Positions 1,100 through 12,618 of a DNA stretch of 64,000 nucleotides are shown piece by piece (the stretch's first letter is position 1; each line of letters begins with the position of its first letter). Made by a program: the position numbers and the translations under genes. This DNA is from Clostridia bacterium (GTDB lineage Bacteria > Bacillota > Clostridia > RGIG6154), in contig JAZNOU010000002.1 of the NCBI GenBank assembly GCA_045589295.1, forward strand, positions 88,801-152,800. Direction: 5' to 3'. The notes below the pieces were generated by a model. That model searched no databases. It saw nothing but the letters and a program-made list of their open reading frames with translations, and was not told where the DNA came from.

Positions 1100-3627
1100 A
1101 AAAATTTGATTTTGACGGCATTTTAAAAAGTCCTAGAATTGACCGTTTGATTGATAATTTGTTTGTGAAAATGCCGGAAATTGAAGCAGAACGTGCGGTG
1201 CTTCTTACCGAGTCCTATAAGCAGACTGAAGGAGAACCAATTATTTTAAGACGTGCAAAAGCATTTAAAAATATCTGCGAAAAGCTTCCGCTTACAATTC
1301 GTGATGAAGAACTTATCGTAGGTGCTGCAACAAAAGTTGCACGTGGTTGTCAGGTGTTTCCTGAGTATTCTTTTGAATGGCTTGAAGAGGAGTTTGATAC
1401 AGTAGAAACAAGATCTGCAGACCCTTTCCACATTTCTGAAGAAACAAAAGCAACTTTAAAAGAAGTGTATAAGTACTGGAGAGGAAAAACCACCAGCGAT
1501 CTTGCTACTTCATATATGTCGTCTGCGGCATTAAAGGCAATTGAGCACAATATCTTTACACCCGGGAATTATTTTTACAATGGTGTAGGTCACGTTACAG
1601 TTGATTATAAGAAAGTTCTTGAAGTAGGTTACAAGGGCATTATGGCAGAGGCTAAAAAGGCTTTGGCAGAATGTGATGTTGCGCAGTCTGATTATGCATC
1701 AAGAAGTGCATTTTTAGAAGCAGTAATTATAAGCTGCGAGGCAGCAATTACCTTTGCAAAAAGATATTCAGAATATGCTTATCAGCTTGCACAGAATACC
1801 GCAGATGCTACAAGAAAACAGGAACTTTTAATAATTTCAGAAAACTGCGCAAATGTTCCTGAAAATGGTGCAAAATCATTCTATGAGGCTTGTCAGTCAT
1901 TCTGGTTTGTTCAGCTTCTTATTCAGACAGAATCAAGCGGGCACTCAATTTCACCTGGTCGTTTTGACCAGTATATGTATCCTTATTATAAAAAGGATAT
2001 TGATGCAGGCAAAATCACAAAGGAGTTTGCTCAAGAGCTTATTGATTGTGTTTGGGTTAAACTCAACGACTTCACAAAGGTAAGAGATAAAGCATCGGCA
2101 GAAGGTTTTGCAGGCTACAGTTTGTTTCAGAACCTGATTGCAGGCGGTCAGACTCCTGACGGAAGAGATGCCACAAACGACCTTTCATTCATGACAATTG
2201 AAGCAACTATGCATGTGCTTTTGCCACAGCCGTCGTTCTCTGTAAGGGTATGGAACGGAACTCCGCATGAATTTATGATTAAAGCGGGTGAACTTACAAG
2301 AACAGGTGTTGGTCTTCCTGCTTATTATAACGACGAAGTTATTATTCCTGCTTTAGTAAACCGCGGTCTTACTTTAGAAGATGCAAGAAACTACAACATC
2401 ATCGGTTGTGTTGAGCCTCAGTGTCCTGGCAAGACAGATGGATGGCATGATGCAGCGTTTTTTAATATGTGTAGAATTGTAGAGCTTGTTTTCTCAAACG
2501 GTGTTGATGAAGGTGAGAAAATAAGCGTTGACACAGGGAATGTTGAAGACTTTAAAACATTTGAAGAATTTTTTGATGCTTACAAAGCTCATATGAATTA
2601 TATGATAAAGCTTATGGTTAACGCAGACAATGCTATTGATATGGCACATATGAACCGTTGTCCGTTGCCATTCCAGTCATGTATGGTGGCTGACTGTATC
2701 GGCAGAGGCAAATCAATGCAGGAAGGTGGCGCGATTTACAACTTTACAGGTCCGCAAGGATTTGGTATTGCTAATATGGCAGATGCTCTTTATGCAATTA
2801 AAAAGCTTGTATTTGATGAAAAGAAAATTACTTTGGCTGAATTTAAAGAGGCTTTAAAAGATAACTACGGAAGAAGCACAGACGAAAAGCAGGCTATGAG
2901 CATTACAACTGAAATTGTGAGACAGATTGTATCTGCAGGTCAGACAGTTTCTGAAGAAAAAATTGCTGAAATTTACAAAATGGTTGCCGCAAGTGGTGGC
3001 GTAAGCGAAGAGAAAAAAGCAAAATATGATAAGCTTCTTGAGATGATTGATGCACTTCCTAAGTTTGGTAATGACAACAGTGAAGTAGATGCTTTAGCGA
3101 GAGAAGTTGCTTATACATATACAAAGCCATTGGAACAGTATAAAAATCCAAGAGGCGGAAGCTATCAGGCGGGATTATATCCTGTGTCTGCTAACGTTCC
3201 GCTTGGCGCACAGACAGGGGCAACTCCTGACGGAAGGTTTGCTTGTACCCCTGTGGCAGATGGTGTATCGCCTTGTGCAGGCAGGGATGTCAACGGACCT
3301 ACTGCGGCTGCAAACTCTGTTTCAAAGCTTGACCACTTTATTGCATCAAACGGAACGTTATTTAATATGAAGTTCCATCCGTCAGCTTTAAAAGGAAGAG
3401 CGGGTCTTGAGAGCTTTGTTTCGCTTATCAGAGCCTACTTTGACCAGAAAGGCAGTCACATGCAGTTTAACGTTGTAAGCCGTGAAACACTTCGCGATGC
3501 ACAGAAGAATCCTGAAAAGTATAAGAGCTTGGTTGTTCGTGTTGCGGGATATTCTGCACTGTTTACAACACTTTCAAAATCACTTCAGGATGATATTATT
3601 AACAGAACTGAACAAGGTGGATTTTAA
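1096..3627 (+). CDS. Glycyl radical enzyme, PFL2/diol-dehydratase family; probable B12-independent 1,2-propanediol dehydratase of the microcompartment
   Basis: 843 aa; GCVEP thiyl-radical loop; C-terminal RVAGYSALF glycyl-radical motif; directly followed by an activase and BMC genes. Confidence 0.85.
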   Translation: MKKFDFDGILKSPRIDRLIDNLFVKMPEIEAERAVLLTESYKQTEGEPIILRRAKAFKNICEKLPLTIRDEELIVGAATKVARGCQVFPEYSFEWLEEEFDTVETRSADPFHISEETKATLKEVYKYWRGKTTSDLATSYMSSAALKAIEHNIFTPGNYFYNGVGHVTVDYKKVLEVGYKGIMAEAKKALAECDVAQSDYASRSAFLEAVIISCEAAITFAKRYSEYAYQLAQNTADATRKQELLIISENCANVPENGAKSFYEACQSFWFVQLLIQTESSGHSISPGRFDQYMYPYYKKDIDAGKITKEFAQELIDCVWVKLNDFTKVRDKASAEGFAGYSLFQNLIAGGQTPDGRDATNDLSFMTIEATMHVLLPQPSFSVRVWNGTPHEFMIKAGELTRTGVGLPAYYNDEVIIPALVNRGLTLEDARNYNIIGCVEPQCPGKTDGWHDAAFFNMCRIVELVFSNGVDEGEKISVDTGNVEDFKTFEEFFDAYKAHMNYMIKLMVNADNAIDMAHMNRCPLPFQSCMVADCIGRGKSMQEGGAIYNFTGPQGFGIANMADALYAIKKLVFDEKKITLAEFKEALKDNYGRSTDEKQAMSITTEIVRQIVSAGQTVSEEKIAEIYKMVAASGGVSEEKKAKYDKLLEMIDALPKFGNDNSEVDALAREVAYTYTKPLEQYKNPRGGSYQAGLYPVSANVPLGAQTGATPDGRFACTPVADGVSPCAGRDVNGPTAAANSVSKLDHFIASNGTLFNMKFHPSALKGRAGLESFVSLIRAYFDQKGSHMQFNVVSRETLRDAQKNPEKYKSLVVRVAGYSALFTTLSKSLQDDIINRTEQGGF

Positions 3628-5375: not shown

Positions 5376-6188
5376 ATGACTTCAGAATTTGAAATCAAAA
5401 AACAAATTTGTGACATCGGTAAGAGAATTTACAACAGAGGCATGGTTGCTGCAAATGACGGTAACATTTCTGTTAAGCTTTCCGACAATGAATTTTTGTG
5501 CACACCTACAGGTGTAAGTAAGGGCTTTATGACACCCGAGTACATCTGTAAAGTTGACAGAGACGGTAATGTTATCCAGGCAAATGGTAACTTTAAGCCT
5601 TCTTCTGAAATCAAAATGCACATGAGAGTTTATCAGCAGAGACCTGATGTAAAAAGTGTTGTTCACGCACATCCTATTTACGCAACAAGTTTTGCTATTG
5701 CAGGCATTCCGCTTACACAGCCTATTATGCCTGAAGCAGTTATTGCACTTGGTTGCGTTCCGATTGCTGAGTACGGCACACCTTCTACAATGGAAATTCC
5801 TGATGCTGTAGAAAAATACTTGCAGTATTATGATGCAGTGCTCTTGGCTAACCATGGTGCACTTGCATATTCTGATAGCTTACTTGCAGCATATCACAAG
5901 ATGGAATCTTTGGAATTTTATGCAGAGCTTCTCTTTAAAGCAAAACAGCTTGGTGGCCCAAAAGAATTGTCAGAAGAACAGGTTCAGAGACTTTACGAAA
6001 TCAGAAGACAGTTCGGTATGACAGGTAAACATCCTGCAGACCTCTGCCCAAATGCTAAAGACGGAAAAACAAGCTGCCATTCATGCGGCGGACACTGCGG
6101 CGGACACAAAGCTGCTACAATAAGCGGGGCAGATGCTGATTTGGTTGCATCAATTACAAAAAGAGTAATGGAACAGCTTGGCAAATAA
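5376..6188 (+). CDS. Class II aldolase (L-fuculose/L-rhamnulose-1-phosphate aldolase family) with a Cys/His-rich linker and a C-terminal encapsulation peptide
   Basis: Class II aldolase core (HAHPIYATSFAIAG); C-terminal tail CPNAKDGKTSCHSCGGHCGGHK followed by amphipathic DADLVASITKRVMEQLGK; AAAAGGAG RBS. Confidence 0.85.
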   Translation: MTSEFEIKKQICDIGKRIYNRGMVAANDGNISVKLSDNEFLCTPTGVSKGFMTPEYICKVDRDGNVIQANGNFKPSSEIKMHMRVYQQRPDVKSVVHAHPIYATSFAIAGIPLTQPIMPEAVIALGCVPIAEYGTPSTMEIPDAVEKYLQYYDAVLLANHGALAYSDSLLAAYHKMESLEFYAELLFKAKQLGGPKELSEEQVQRLYEIRRQFGMTGKHPADLCPNAKDGKTSCHSCGGHCGGHKAATISGADADLVASITKRVMEQLGK

Positions 6189-6212
6189 TTGCACTTTGAA
6201 AGGAGCAGTTAT

Positions 6213-6686
6213 ATGAATGAGCAAAATATTTCTTCTTTGGTAGCTGCTGCAATTAAAGACGTGATTTTAAACTCTTCTTCCGAAATGAATCTCGACAAGG
6301 CTAAGAAGCTTGCTTTAATTGTTGAAAACGAAGCAAAAAGGATTGGGGTTAAGGCAGTGGTTGCAATTTCCAATTCGGGAGCAAGACCTGTTTTGGTTGA
6401 GTGTATGGATGATTCTTATATAGCAAGTTATGATGTTGCTTTTAACAAAGCCTACACTGTAGTTGCACTCAAAATGCCAACTTCAAAGCTTAAAACTTTG
6501 AGCCAGCCCAACCAACCACTTTACGGTATACAATTTACTAATCAAGGACAGATTGTTATTTTCGGCGGTGGTGAGCCACTTTATAAAGATGGTAAGATAG
6601 TTGGAGGCCTTGGGGTAAGCGGCGGAACCGAAGAACAAGATACCTACCTTGCTGAGTTTGGTGCTAAAGCATGGGAGGAACTTTAA
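6213..6686 (+). CDS. DUF336 / GlcG / PduO C-terminal-domain-like (heme-binding-like) protein
   Basis: About 157 aa with GGG.P and GVSGG motifs typical of DUF336; AAGGAG RBS before the ATG at 6213 (the track start at 6189 is TTG). Confidence 0.7.
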   Translation: MNEQNISSLVAAAIKDVILNSSSEMNLDKAKKLALIVENEAKRIGVKAVVAISNSGARPVLVECMDDSYIASYDVAFNKAYTVVALKMPTSKLKTLSQPNQPLYGIQFTNQGQIVIFGGGEPLYKDGKIVGGLGVSGGTEEQDTYLAEFGAKAWEEL

Positions 6687-6687
6687 A

Positions 6688-8217
6688 ATGACCGAACTAA
6701 AGAAAAAAGCTCTTGAAATTGCAAAGAGCAAATCCAGTACGGTTGTTGAAGTTTTTAGAGAAGAAAAACAAGAGTTTATTTATTATCTTATTGAAAACGG
6801 CGGATATTTCGCAAATGATAATGAGATAAAAAGGCTTGAAACACATGCAGTTACAAAAGCTGACAATTTAAATGCTGTGTTGTTTAAAATGAAAGCAATT
6901 ACAGCATACGACCACAAGTTTATAATTTATGATGCCGACAAGGCATATTTAGACGGGTTTAATGTTCCAATGGTTGGAATTAAAACCTTAAAAAAAGAAA
7001 AAAGGAGCGCTGAAATGGATATTAATCAGGATAAAATTCAGGCAATAGTTCAGCAGGTTCTGTCCGAAATGGGAGGAAATGCAAAGCCGGCTCCAAAGGC
7101 AACAGGTGGCGCAATCCCCAAAACAAGCAGGGCGGCAATGCTCACAAAGCTTGAAAATTACGAAATAAAAGAGTTCCCTATTCCTGAGCTTGGCGACGAT
7201 GACATTTTAGTTAAAGTTGAAGGTTGCGGCGTTTGCGGAACCGATGCACACGAATTCAAACGTGATCCCTTTGGTCTTATCCCACTTGTTCTCGGTCACG
7301 AGGGCACGGGCGAAATTGTAAAGATGGGTAAAAACGTTAAAAAGGACAGTGCAGGAAAGCCACTTAACGTTGGCGATAAAGTTGTTACCTGTATGATCTT
7401 TAAAGACAATCCGGATATCACAATGTTTGATTTAAACAAACAAAATGTCGGCGGTGCAGATGTCTACGGACTTCTCCCTGATGATGACATTCACTTAAAT
7501 GGTTGGTTTGCAGACTACATAGTAGTAAGAGGCGGTTCTACAGTATTTAATGTTAGCGACTTAGACCTCGATTCAAGAATTTTAATTGAACCTTGTGCAG
7601 TTTTAATTCACGCAGTAGAACGTGCTAAAACAACAGGAATTTTAAAATTCAATTCAAGAGTTGTTGTTCAGGGTTGTGGACCTATCGGTCTTATCTGTAT
7701 CGCGATTCTTCGTACAATGGGTATTGAAAATATCGTTGCAGTAGATGGCGAACAAAAAAGACTTGATTTTGCAAGAGAAATGGGCGCGACAGGTACAGTT
7801 AACTTCAAAGACCACAAGGGTATTGAAGCACTTACCGGTGCAGTAGAAAACGAATTTGGCGGATACTTAGCTGACTTTGCATTCCAGTGCACTGGCTCAC
7901 CAATTGCTCACGCTAACATTTACAAGTTTATAAGAAACGGTGGCGGTCTTTGCGAACTCGGTTTCTTTATAAACGGCGGCGACGCTACAATCAATCCACA
8001 CTTTGACATTTGTTCAAAGGAAATCACAACAGTAGGTTCTTGGGTTTACACTTTAAGAGATTATGCTACAACATTTGATTTCTTAAAGAGAGCAAAAGGT
8101 ATCGGACTTCCGATGGAAAAGCTCATCACTCACAAGTTCCCACTTGACCAAATCAATGAGGCTCACATCACAAACCTTAAGATGGAAGGCCTTAAAATAG
8201 CAATAGTAAATGATTAA
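6688..8217 (+). CDS. Zn-dependent MDR-family alcohol dehydrogenase, fused in frame to an uncharacterised ~109-aa N-terminal domain and an internal encapsulation-peptide-like helix; a possible second start lies at 7015
   Basis: GCGVCGTDAHE and GHEGTGE Zn-ADH motifs and a GxGxxG Rossmann fold; GGGAGG RBS before ATG 6688; internal AAAAGGAG + ATG at 7015 followed by MDINQDKIQAIVQQVLSEMGG and a Pro/Ala-rich linker. Confidence 0.8.
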   Translation: MTELKKKALEIAKSKSSTVVEVFREEKQEFIYYLIENGGYFANDNEIKRLETHAVTKADNLNAVLFKMKAITAYDHKFIIYDADKAYLDGFNVPMVGIKTLKKEKRSAEMDINQDKIQAIVQQVLSEMGGNAKPAPKATGGAIPKTSRAAMLTKLENYEIKEFPIPELGDDDILVKVEGCGVCGTDAHEFKRDPFGLIPLVLGHEGTGEIVKMGKNVKKDSAGKPLNVGDKVVTCMIFKDNPDITMFDLNKQNVGGADVYGLLPDDDIHLNGWFADYIVVRGGSTVFNVSDLDLDSRILIEPCAVLIHAVERAKTTGILKFNSRVVVQGCGPIGLICIAILRTMGIENIVAVDGEQKRLDFAREMGATGTVNFKDHKGIEALTGAVENEFGGYLADFAFQCTGSPIAHANIYKFIRNGGGLCELGFFINGGDATINPHFDICSKEITTVGSWVYTLRDYATTFDFLKRAKGIGLPMEKLITHKFPLDQINEAHITNLKMEGLKIAIVND

Positions 8218-8528: not shown

Positions 8529-8906
8529 ATGGCAACAGCTAAAAAGACAACTAAGGCGGCTGCTCCAAAAGCAGAGCCTAAAAAAGAAGTAAATATCAAG
8601 GTTGAATCTATTAAGGAGGAAAAGAAAATGGCATTAGAAGCATTAGGTATGGTAGAAACAAGAGGTTTGGTAGCTGCAATTGAAGCTGCCGATGCAATGC
8701 TCAAAGCTGCAAACGTACAGCTTTTAGGAACTGAAAGAATCGGTTCTGGTTTGGTAAGCGTTATGGTTCGCGGTGATGTAGGCGCTGTTAAAGCTGCTGT
8801 AGAAGCTGGTCAGGCAAGTGCTCAGAGACTCGGCGAAATCATTGCTACACACGTAATTCCAAGACCTCATGGTGATGTTGAAAAAATTCTTCCGTCACTC
8901 AAATAA
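8529..8906 (+). CDS. BMC-H shell protein with a 33-aa Lys/Ala-rich N-terminal extension (PduJ/K-like); alternative internal start at 8628
   Basis: BMC domain nearly identical to the upstream paralog; N-terminal tail [19 protein letters not shown]...; RBS present both at 8513-8523 and internally (AAGGAGG at 8613-8619). Confidence 0.85.
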
Positions 8907-11226: not shown

Positions 11227-12618
11227 ATGAATATTAGTGAAAGCTACATTAAACAAATTGTAGAACAGGTAATAAACGGAACACAGACCGTGGCTGGCAA
11301 CAAAACACTTAAAGGTGTATTCCCCACAATGGGCGAGGCGCTTGTTGCAGTTGAAAAAGCTTATAAAGAATTTAAATCATACAGCGTAGCACAGCGTGAG
11401 AAAATGATTTCTAAAATCAGAGAATACACATTGGCAGAAGCTGAAAATATGGCGGTGCTTGGTGTAAAAGAAACCAAAATGGGAAGGGTTTCTGATAAAA
11501 TTATCAAGCATCAGTTGGTTGCAAACAAAACTCCGGGTACTGAAGATTTACAGCCATCAGTTATGACAGGTGATGATGGTATGACATTGGTTGAAATGGC
11601 ACCTTACGGTGTAATTGGTAGTATCACACCTTCAACAAATCCATCAGAAACTGTTATTTGCAACTCAATGGGTATGATTGCAGGCGGAAATGCGGTTGTA
11701 TTTAATCCGCATCCTAACGCGTGTGATACAGCAAATTATGCAGTTGACCTTGTTAACAGAGCAGTTTTAGAGGCGGGAGGCCCAGAAAACTTAGTAGTTT
11801 CTGTTGCAAAACCTACGAGAGAGTCTTCAAATGAAATGATGGCTTCTCCTGTAGTTAAAATGCTTGTTGCAACAGGCGGACCTGGTGTTGTTAAAGCACT
11901 CTTGTCTTCTGGTAAAAAGGCAATTGGTGCAGGGGCAGGAAATCCTCCTGTTATTGTTGACGATACTGCAGATATTGAAAAAGCGGGCGCAGATATTGTT
12001 AAAGGTGCAAGCTTTGACAATAACTTGCCATGTATTGCAGAAAAAGAATGTTTTGTATTTAACAACGTGGCAGACAGACTTATTGCTTCAATGCTTGAAA
12101 ATGGTGCGTACCTTGTTAAAGGAGCAGACATTGATAAGCTTGTTAAAGTCGCACTTGTTGAAAAAGACGGAAAATATTCAATCAATAAAGATTTTGTAGG
12201 CAGAGATGCTTCTAAGTTCTTAAAAGAAATTGGAATTGATGCAGATCCAAGACTTATAATCTGTGAAACGGATTTTAACCATCCGTTTGTTCAGGAAGAA
12301 CTTATGATGCCAATTTTGCCGATTGTAAGAGTTAACAATATTGACGAAGCTATTGAACTTGCTGTTAAGGCAGAACACGGCAACCGTCACACAGCACATA
12401 TTCATTCAAAGAATATCGACCACCTTACAAGATTTGCAAGAGCGGTTGAAACAACAATTTTTGTTAAAAATGCTCCTTCTTATGCAGGTATCGGTGCAGG
12501 CGGAGAAGGTTATACAACATTTACTATAGCAGGTCCTACAGGTGAAGGTTTAACAGCTGCTCATTCATTCACCAGAAGCAGAAGATGCGTTATGGTAGAC
12601 GGACTTCATATTGTTTAA
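11227..12618 (+). CDS. CoA-acylating aldehyde dehydrogenase (PduP/EutE family) with an N-terminal encapsulation peptide
   Basis: 463 aa ALDH fold with a catalytic Cys region; N-terminal amphipathic SYIKQIVEQVING. Confidence 0.88.
   Translation: MNISESYIKQIVEQVINGTQTVAGNKTLKGVFPTMGEALVAVEKAYKEFKSYSVAQREKMISKIREYTLAEAENMAVLGVKETKMGRVSDKIIKHQLVANKTPGTEDLQPSVMTGDDGMTLVEMAPYGVIGSITPSTNPSETVICNSMGMIAGGNAVVFNPHPNACDTANYAVDLVNRAVLEAGGPENLVVSVAKPTRESSNEMMASPVVKMLVATGGPGVVKALLSSGKKAIGAGAGNPPVIVDDTADIEKAGADIVKGASFDNNLPCIAEKECFVFNNVADRLIASMLENGAYLVKGADIDKLVKVALVEKDGKYSINKDFVGRDASKFLKEIGIDADPRLIICETDFNHPFVQEELMMPILPIVRVNNIDEAIELAVKAEHGNRHTAHIHSKNIDHLTRFARAVETTIFVKNAPSYAGIGAGGEGYTTFTIAGPTGEGLTAAHSFTRSRRCVMVDGLHIV

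Follow-up and report, generated by a model that had tools for sequence, protein, structure and literature searches.

A microcompartment alcohol dehydrogenase gene of gut Clostridia with a predicted aldehyde dehydrogenase relic ahead of its putative encapsulation peptide and a conserved internal start

Encapsulation peptides (EPs) are treated as terminal tags, and the packing and proportions of the cargo of catabolic bacterial microcompartments (BMCs) are poorly understood, the encapsulation of alcohol dehydrogenase (ADH) especially. A stretch of 64,000 nucleotides from a Clostridia bacterium (GTDB lineage RGIG6154; contig JAZNOU010000002.1, positions 88,801 to 152,800; hereafter the window) raises the question of how such an enzyme could come to carry its targeting peptide in mid-chain. 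Its open reading frame (ORF) 6688-8217, part of a GRM5-type BMC locus, encodes in order a folded domain of 104 amino acids (aa; hereafter the N-domain), a short junction, an amphipathic helix followed by a Pro/Ala linker, and a Zn-dependent ADH, and the helix is preceded by a Shine-Dalgarno (SD) sequence and an ATG of its own (Table 1). This three-part frame of 510 codons had been described in an earlier reading of the same DNA, made from the letters and their ORFs (the sequence-only reading), which left the choice between two isoforms and a gene fusion; translation together with Pfam and NCBIfam scans bears the frame out. We propose, with a probability of about 0.7, that a gene fusion kept the ADH's own start, so that the gene would give a long (relic-EP-ADH) and a short (EP-ADH) isoform.

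The fusion and its two starts across related loci

The fusion itself is genuine. A scan of one genome per GTDB species yielded 80 related loci, in 28 of which the frame stays open from a start beside the stop of an HbpS-like gene, through an N-terminal extension of 94-152 codons, into the ADH. These 28 other species-level genomes and the window make up the set of 29 fused genes compared below, and a metagenome scan added four more fused loci as well as L087, which is the same species assembled independently from a metagenome. Its identity to the window is 99-100%, with one synonymous single-nucleotide polymorphism elsewhere, and its A7-G-A6-GGAG junction is the same base for base. Because the junction recurs in an independent assembly and the in-frame fusion recurs across 28 other species, an assembly or homopolymer error is excluded.

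Loci without the extension indicate which part is the newcomer. The ADH is unfused in at least 41 loci, where its immediate upstream neighbour is the HbpS-like gene (25 loci) or a full-length acylating aldehyde dehydrogenase gene (AldDH; 16 loci) and where it begins at the EP, mostly at a methionine aligned with M110 of the window; in Dorea, Lachnotalea, Konateibacter, Mobilisporobacter, Acutalibacteraceae and others it starts exactly at the EP methionine. The N-domain is thus an addition in one group, and the suggestion that a gene fusion had placed a targeting peptide mid-protein is supported. The possibility that the N-domain exists as a separate gene in the unfused relatives was considered and rejected, since the ADH there directly follows the HbpS-like or AldDH gene and no room is left. 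In Lachnospiraceae-type loci, the full AldDH sits between the HbpS-like gene and the ADH, which is the same slot that the N-domain occupies in the fused loci. The GRM5 locus accordingly has at least three gene orders, with the AldDH upstream of the ADH, with the relic fused to it, or with neither. Unfused loci of the Acutalibacteraceae/Oscillospiraceae type (e.g. L073, L075 and L070) carry five BMC-H-like genes after the ADH, and have no AldDH, BMC-T or PduL between PduT and DeoR. Full-text literature on GRM5, lactaldehyde reductase and encapsulation peptides contained no account that we could find of this fusion or of an internal start, and an exact-sequence look-up of the window protein returned no record.

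A stop codon between the N-domain and the ADH, which the sequence-only reading had named as the sign of a sequencing error, separates the two parts in a single orthologue. The frame is open in 28 of 29, and L069 alone (CAYQKW010000001.1, 5923-6261) has the N-domain as a separate ORF of 112 aa, the TGA of which overlaps the ATG of the ADH (ATGA). The split may be ancestral or secondary, or else the product of a one-base error in the assembly of this metagenome-assembled genome. A different arrangement is found in L081 (ENA ERZ28633346 scaffold_797014, 699-1124), which has no ADH; there the N-domain makes up a small separate protein together with an EP-like helix, ISETQIREIVEQILFKL, and a BMC-H gene comes directly after it. 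Finally, L082 (ENA ERZ28436100 NODE_61219, 2031-2418) has an intact N-domain and AGGAG, an ATT in place of the expected ATG and, over its last ~40 nucleotides (nt), sequence unrelated to EP-ADH; it may be a disrupted locus or a contig-end assembly artefact at 4x coverage.

The internal start is conserved too. The AGGAG that the sequence-only reading had placed 7 nt before the ATG at 7015 is confirmed, and the arrangement AGGAG-N7-ATG is found in 25 of the 29 fused genes, with GAGG[AG]-N6-ATG in the other four and an ATG start codon in all 29. Part of this SD is the codon of R106, a residue that is invariant or nearly so. In 25 of 28 sequences AGG encodes R106, as against 7 of ~285 at ten other conserved arginine columns, in which AGA, CGT and CGC are freely mixed, and on this codon evidence the constraint at R106 acts on the nucleotides and not on the amino acid alone. 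Within the 64-kb window, AGGAG-N7-ATG occurs eight times against 1.3 expected, a count reached in 0 of 100 shuffles, and six of the eight occurrences are the starts of long ORFs. In the predicted mRNA fold, the internal SD falls within an A-rich stretch that is unpaired; a structure that might hide it was looked for and rejected, none being significant (z = -1.0). In L081, which has no ADH, the helix is kept and the internal SD and ATG are both lost. Judged by these comparisons, the internal SD and ATG are under selection. Of the earlier two-isoform proposal, the internal start has therefore stood, conserved at the nucleotide level in 29 fused genes, and the two products are what we infer from it.

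The start of the long form looks different. The GGAGG at the end of the HbpS-like gene is kept in orthologues, in which the start of the N-domain overlaps or abuts the HbpS stop, and this abutment suggests translational coupling. The long start codon among the 29 is ATG in ~8-10, GTG in ~12, TTG in four and ATA in four; it is something other than ATG in at least 19 of them, as would be fitting if the long isoform were the minor one. These features suggest a start that is coupled to the HbpS-like stop and probably weaker. In one subgroup (L034:5932, L011:5932, L038:2562, L009:5926, L081:699 and L082 ~2025), ATG, GTG and TTG are all missing from the conserved N-terminus of the domain, and the sole plausible start is an ATA that overlaps the upstream TAA (ATAA) 6-7 nt past GGAGG, which suggests a non-canonical start or termination-reinitiation coupling. 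The HbpS-like ORF of the window had been listed from a TTG at 6189; its real start is likely the ATG at 6213, which has AGGAG-N7 ahead of it, and homologues align only from residue 9 as counted from the TTG.

Origin and maintenance of the N-domain

Residues 1-109 have zero matches in Pfam and zero in NCBIfam, and the sequence-only reading could not assign them. The family is nearly absent from protein databases, since a word-indexed search of the N-domain against 5.8 billion proteins gave no match and an exhaustive search of 1.84 billion representative proteins gave four short ones only; we recovered it from genome DNA. Against the PDB, the resulting family profile has weak matches (E ~0.02) to 4c3s, 5dbv and 5dru, the BMC propionaldehyde dehydrogenase of Clostridium phytofermentans. 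When the N-domain hidden Markov model (HMM) was run against all ORFs of the fetched loci, it matched AldDHs only, always at residues ~271-381 (best E 1e-10) and at residues 277-372 in the AldDH of the window. Comparison of the N-domain with an AldDH profile by hhalign placed N-domain residues 20-103 on AldDH residues 275-370 (97.4%, E 1.1e-11), and a second such comparison gave 97.8% with E values to 1e-12. The aligned region opens just past the invariant catalytic C269 (LPCIAEKE loop) and closes before H388/H391, such that the catalytic Cys and His of AldDH both fall outside it; the N-domain has no conserved Cys or His.

Structure prediction points the same way. In an AlphaFold2 (AF2) model, residues 1-104 have block means of 86-93 for the predicted local distance difference test (pLDDT), with one dip to 66. 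A Foldseek search of the PDB with a 145-residue query returned 21 top matches that are all acylating aldehyde dehydrogenases (ALDHs) or the ALDH domains of AdhE (probability 0.99-1.00, TM 0.53-0.58), among them the BMC enzymes of C. phytofermentans and R. palustris. Thus the remote homology search and the structure prediction that the sequence-only reading had proposed both lead to the catalytic domain of acylating ALDHs, and the domain it had found unassignable is, by profile and model comparison, a homologue of residues ~275-370 of PduP-type acylating AldDH, a derived fragment of the catalytic domain. By the same comparison, the N-domain derives from a paralogue of the AldDH gene further down the window locus. 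The N-domain is not itself a member enzyme, as it matches no family model, does not have the two-domain architecture of ~460 aa and has neither the catalytic Cys nor the catalytic His. A further idea, that the EP helix is homologous to the ALDH helix after residue 370, was rejected because the hhalign alignment ends at N-domain residue 100.

Despite the loss of its catalytic residues, the domain has been maintained. Ratios of non-synonymous to synonymous substitution rates (dN/dS) are 0.10-0.51 for the N-domain, with a median of ~0.24, versus 0.00-0.06 for the ADH, in 12 pairs with measurable dS, which is saturated or near-saturated. The core residues Y32, L34, G38, G39 and F78 are invariant or nearly so. 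By these measures of sequence evolution, the N-domain is translated and under purifying selection. Moreover, the L069 and L081 forms argue for an independent role of the module, because it is free-standing in the first and occurs with the helix and without the ADH in the second.

The targeting helix, the enzyme and the locus

The AF2 model predicts a helix at residues 114-127, flanked by segments with pLDDT below 50 (residues 105-112 and 129-145) that are predicted to be disordered. The hydrophobic pattern hxxhhxxhh of this helix (IQAIVQQVL) is kept in all 80 loci and recurs at the N-terminus of the AldDH and the C-terminus of the aldolase of the window locus, and a profile of the segment has weak matches to the N-termini of EutC, PduD and PduE (E 0.017-0.23). 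The linker that follows is rich in Pro, Ala and Gly and poorly conserved, varying in both sequence and length across orthologues. Neither helix nor linker is found in non-BMC ADHs, as the NCBIfam models (Tdh, IdnD, AdhP and others) align only from residues ~147-168 and the Pfam domain ADH_N from residue 169, and both have the same form in the window protein as in unfused orthologues. In the full-length product the helix is internal, at residues 110-130 of 509, and would be N-terminal in the short isoform only. Apart from this non-terminal position in the long product, it fits the structural definition of a predicted EP.

The sequence-only reading was therefore right in giving helix and linker the form of an EP. 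Its premise that such peptides are normally terminal has a published exception, a non-terminal EP having been proposed for the glycyl radical enzymes (GREs) of GRM3 and GRM5 loci (PMC5311937, PMC6325248). The GRE of the window has, at residues ~600-650 (window ~2890-3050), a break in the family HMMs filled by an insert that agrees with the intramolecular EP insertion reported for such enzymes and contains two amphipathic helices, ITTEIVRQIVSAG and EEKIAEIYKMVAASGG. In the class II aldolase (5376-6188), a Cys/His-rich stretch, CPNAKDGKTSCHSCGGHCGGHK (~6060-6188), lies between the catalytic domain and the C-terminal EP-like helix ADLVASITKRVMEQLGK, and may be a metal-binding linker.

The catalytic part of ORF 6688-8217 is recognized by the Pfam models ADH_N (PF08240, residues 169-283, 52.0 bits against a cut-off of 23.5) and ADH_zinc_N (PF00107, residues 332-467, 75.9 bits against 31.8), with a Glu_dehyd_C match also above its Pfam cut-off; the NCBIfam scan gave no ADH equivalog at its cut-off for this ORF. 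By Pfam and NCBIfam, the surrounding 15 kb is a complete GRM5-type (glycyl-radical, fucose/rhamnose) BMC locus. It encodes in order a GRE, its activase, a PduU-like shell protein, EutP, the class II aldolase with its C-terminal EP-like helix, the HbpS/PduO-C-like protein and ORF 6688-8217, followed by two BMC-H proteins, EutN, PduS, PduT, the AldDH with an N-terminal EP, BMC-T, PduL and DeoR. Synteny extends across the same 80 BMC loci, over which the ADH domain is 70-96% identical. The Zn-ADH of GRM5 loci is a putative lactaldehyde reductase, which would turn lactaldehyde from fuculose or rhamnulose phosphate into 1,2-propanediol with NADH (PMC6325248, PMC5311937), and by its domains and locus ORF 6688-8217 belongs to this group, its activity being putative and taken from that literature. 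The second BMC-H protein (8529-8906) has an N-terminal extension of 33 residues rich in Lys and Ala, which is kept in related loci at variable length.

Table 1. Features of ORF 6688-8217 and of two further genes of its locus (positions in the window)
Feature	Position	Strand	Remarks
Whole ORF	6688-8217	+	510 codons, i.e. 509 aa and stop; frame uninterrupted
SD of long isoform, GGAGG	6674..6678	+	9 nt 5' of ATG 6688, inside the HbpS-like gene at its 3' end; read from sequence
Start ATG of long isoform (509 aa)	6688..6690	+	1 nt past the TAA stop of the HbpS-like gene
N-domain, residues 1-104	6688..6999	+	predicted alpha/beta module; PDB profile, HMM, hhalign, AF2/Foldseek, dN/dS
Junction KRSAE, residues 105-109	7000..7014	+	predicted disordered; holds R106, whose AGG codon belongs to the internal SD
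Internal SD, AGGAG	7003..7007	+	7 nt 5' of ATG 7015
Internal ATG (M110)	7015..7017	+	predicted ancestral EP-ADH start; putative start of the 400-aa short isoform
Putative EP helix, residues 114-127 within MDINQDKIQAIVQQVLSEMGG	7027..7068	+	AF2 helix; weak EP profile matches
Flexible linker rich in Pro/Ala/Gly, residues 129-146, NAKPAPKATGGAIPKTS	7072..7125	+	low pLDDT; variable across orthologues
Zn-dependent medium-chain ADH domain including stop codon, putative GRM5 lactaldehyde reductase	7126..8217	+	Pfam
HbpS/PduO-C-like gene	6213..6686	+	Pfam PF03928; directly upstream of ORF 6688-8217
Full-length acylating AldDH with N-terminal EP	11227..12618	+	Pfam PF00171

Explanations and known counterparts

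How might such a gene have arisen, and what would it make? In the history that we favor, the ancestral ADH would have started with an EP and a flexible linker, and in one group of uncultured gut Clostridia a second AldDH gene would once have separated the HbpS-like gene from the ADH, an order that Lachnospiraceae loci retain. This redundant upstream paralogue would have been cut down to a catalytically dead piece of the catalytic domain of ~100 aa, and the remnant joined in frame to the ADH, leaving the EP mid-protein, with the ADH's own SD and ATG retained under selection inside the fused ORF. A long isoform (relic domain-EP-linker-ADH) would then come from the often weak start coupled to the HbpS-like stop, and a short one (EP-linker-ADH) from the internal ATG. 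Medium-chain ADHs are oligomers, and for this reason the long and short forms would probably co-assemble. Kept by selection as a folded module, the relic domain would, we infer, serve as a protein-protein contact or a scaffold in the microcompartment core. The scaffold idea is plausible because in Pdu compartments the alcohol dehydrogenase forms a complex with the aldehyde dehydrogenase, and because inactive AldDH paralogues in GRM1 loci have been proposed to be scaffolds (PMC4594438).

Several observations weigh against this account or parts of it. The N-domain retains no known binding or catalytic motif, and its AF2 model was built from an alignment of five sequences. One comparison that favors the proposed origin may be biased: in 26 of 28 cases, the N-domain scores higher against the AldDH type found in its syntenic slot than against the AldDH encoded in the same locus, but the profile of that upstream type comes from more diverse sequences. 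L069 and L081 are single low-coverage contigs, and the L081-type protein is found on two short contigs only. A neighbour-joining tree of the ADHs, with resolution too low for dating the fusion or counting losses, did not recover the fused genes as one clade, which may reflect one fusion followed by repeated loss, or transfer, or the low resolution of the tree. Lastly, the conserved SD and methionine may have another cause, such as a pausing site or an Arg-Arg constraint at the junction, although the codon test counters a constraint purely on amino acids.

These points bear on three other explanations. If only the full-length protein were made, the EP would act from within the chain, and the internal SD and ATG would be a leftover of the fusion or have some other use, for example a translational pause between the domains. 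This would agree with the non-terminal EPs proposed for GRM3/GRM5 GREs (PMC5311937, PMC6325248), with the predicted disorder of junction and linker, which could leave the helix accessible, and with the frame being open in 28 of 29 orthologues. Nonetheless, we think it improbable: with the codons of other conserved arginines scrambled, a mere leftover would not hold R106 at AGG in 25 of 28 sequences, nor an ATG at fixed spacing in 29 of 29, the SD and ATG are gone from L081 while its helix stays, and AGGAG-N7-ATG marks true starts elsewhere in this genome. The opposite idea, that the N-domain is a decaying, functionless remnant whose frame is translated incidentally or not at all, with the short EP-ADH alone of importance, draws on a rate of evolution 5-10x that of the ADH, on the weak N-domain start codons of most genomes, on the loss or absence of the domain in many related loci and on its missing catalytic residues. 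It is somewhat less probable still, as decay is hard to square with a dN/dS well below 1 (median ~0.24, dS near saturation), with a frame of ~100 codons that has stayed intact in over 30 independent sequences, with conserved core motifs (Y32, L34, G38, G39, F78) and a confidently predicted fold, and with the persistence of the domain as a gene by itself in L069 and joined to the helix in L081, which has no ADH.

A last alternative would deny the fusion altogether, attributing it to a one-base homopolymer error in A7-G-A6, with L069 as the true state, or to a programmed -1 frameshift at A AAA AAA G that ends the N-domain at the TGA in GCTGAAATG. The -1 frame of the window does reach a TGA just 5' of the ATG, and in L069 the two genes are indeed separate and overlap by ATGA. 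However, the junction is the same in the independent assembly L087, and 28 other species share the in-frame junction, most of them with neither an A-run nor a slippery heptamer at that point (e.g. L003, TCTGAGAGGAGAATAGCT, and L008, AAAGACAGGAGAGAAACG). With the junction reproduced and the A-run not conserved in orthologues, both versions were rejected, and we regard them as very improbable indeed.

A fused gene with two starts, the reading that we retain, has partial counterparts in known systems. In the Pdu microcompartment, PduB and PduB' are two products from two in-frame starts; they are shell proteins, the long form being ~37 residues longer. Both cases comprise one gene with two in-frame starts in a BMC operon, but the long form of the window gene would add a whole folded domain to a cargo enzyme. 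The targeting helix also has a familiar likeness in the N-terminal EP of Salmonella PduP, MNTSELETLIRTILSEQL. PduP's LETLIRTILSE and the window's IQAIVQQVLSE have the same hydrophobic pattern followed by SE and then a flexible linker, the putative EP of the window being on an ADH, whereas that of PduP is on an AldDH. The closest relatives of the enzyme are the GRM5 lactaldehyde reductases (Zn-ADH, pfam00107 and pfam08240) of the Roseburia inulinivorans/Clostridium phytofermentans type, which share its family, its locus type and an EP with linker ahead of the catalytic domain (PMC6325248, PMC5311937). The window ADH is 83-90% identical to unfused GRM5 enzymes and differs from them by the AldDH-derived domain of ~104 aa before the EP, which renders the EP internal, and by its second, internal start.

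Two further comparisons concern a helix inside a chain and a dead enzyme kept in a locus. The intramolecular EP of GRM3/GRM5 GREs is likewise a predicted non-terminal targeting helix, from the same type of locus (PMC5311937, PMC6325248), but it is inserted into a domain and lacks its own start codon, while the ADH helix of the window would be a formerly N-terminal EP made internal by fusion. The inactive AldDH paralogues of GRM1 loci are likewise AldDH-derived, catalytically dead and kept beside an active AldDH in a BMC locus (PMC4594438); they are full-length, however, and the window relic is a fragment of ~100 aa (AldDH ~275-370) fused to a different enzyme.

The gene of CcmM, with its M58 and M35 forms, is a further parallel. 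Like the window gene, it encodes a BMC core protein and has an in-frame internal SD and start, and its long form has an N-terminal domain with an enzyme fold; both CcmM isoforms have been shown experimentally and are needed for core assembly, CcmM being a scaffold of an anabolic BMC (PMC7059596). The window protein is, by contrast, a catabolic cargo enzyme, and its isoforms are deduced from sequence conservation. It is a tentative, rather doubtful extension of the two-start reading that the gene is a metabolosome counterpart of CcmM, in which a weak coupled upstream start and a strong internal one would set the isoform ratio, and the dead AldDH domain would be a dedicated scaffold linking the lactaldehyde reductase to AldDH or other core parts, and by way of mixed oligomers it would link the short form with its EP to them as well. 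If true, such an arrangement would organise the recycling of NADH and NAD+ within the compartment. It would be the first in which isoforms of a catabolic cargo enzyme control the assembly of a BMC core, and the first in which a fragment of an enzyme has been taken on as a BMC core adaptor.

Overall, the N-domain, hitherto unexplained, now has a proposed origin. The gene family appears to be an evolutionarily maintained design in which an ADH is apparently made with its tag either exposed at the N-terminus or buried behind a recycled piece of the partner enzyme of the pathway, and it offers what looks like a clear example of the remains of a gene being retained for a new use instead of lost. 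Should the two isoforms be confirmed, metabolosomes, like carboxysomes with their CcmM, would have a core whose composition is controlled through two starts, and the relic would provide a compact candidate adaptor domain for BMC engineering.

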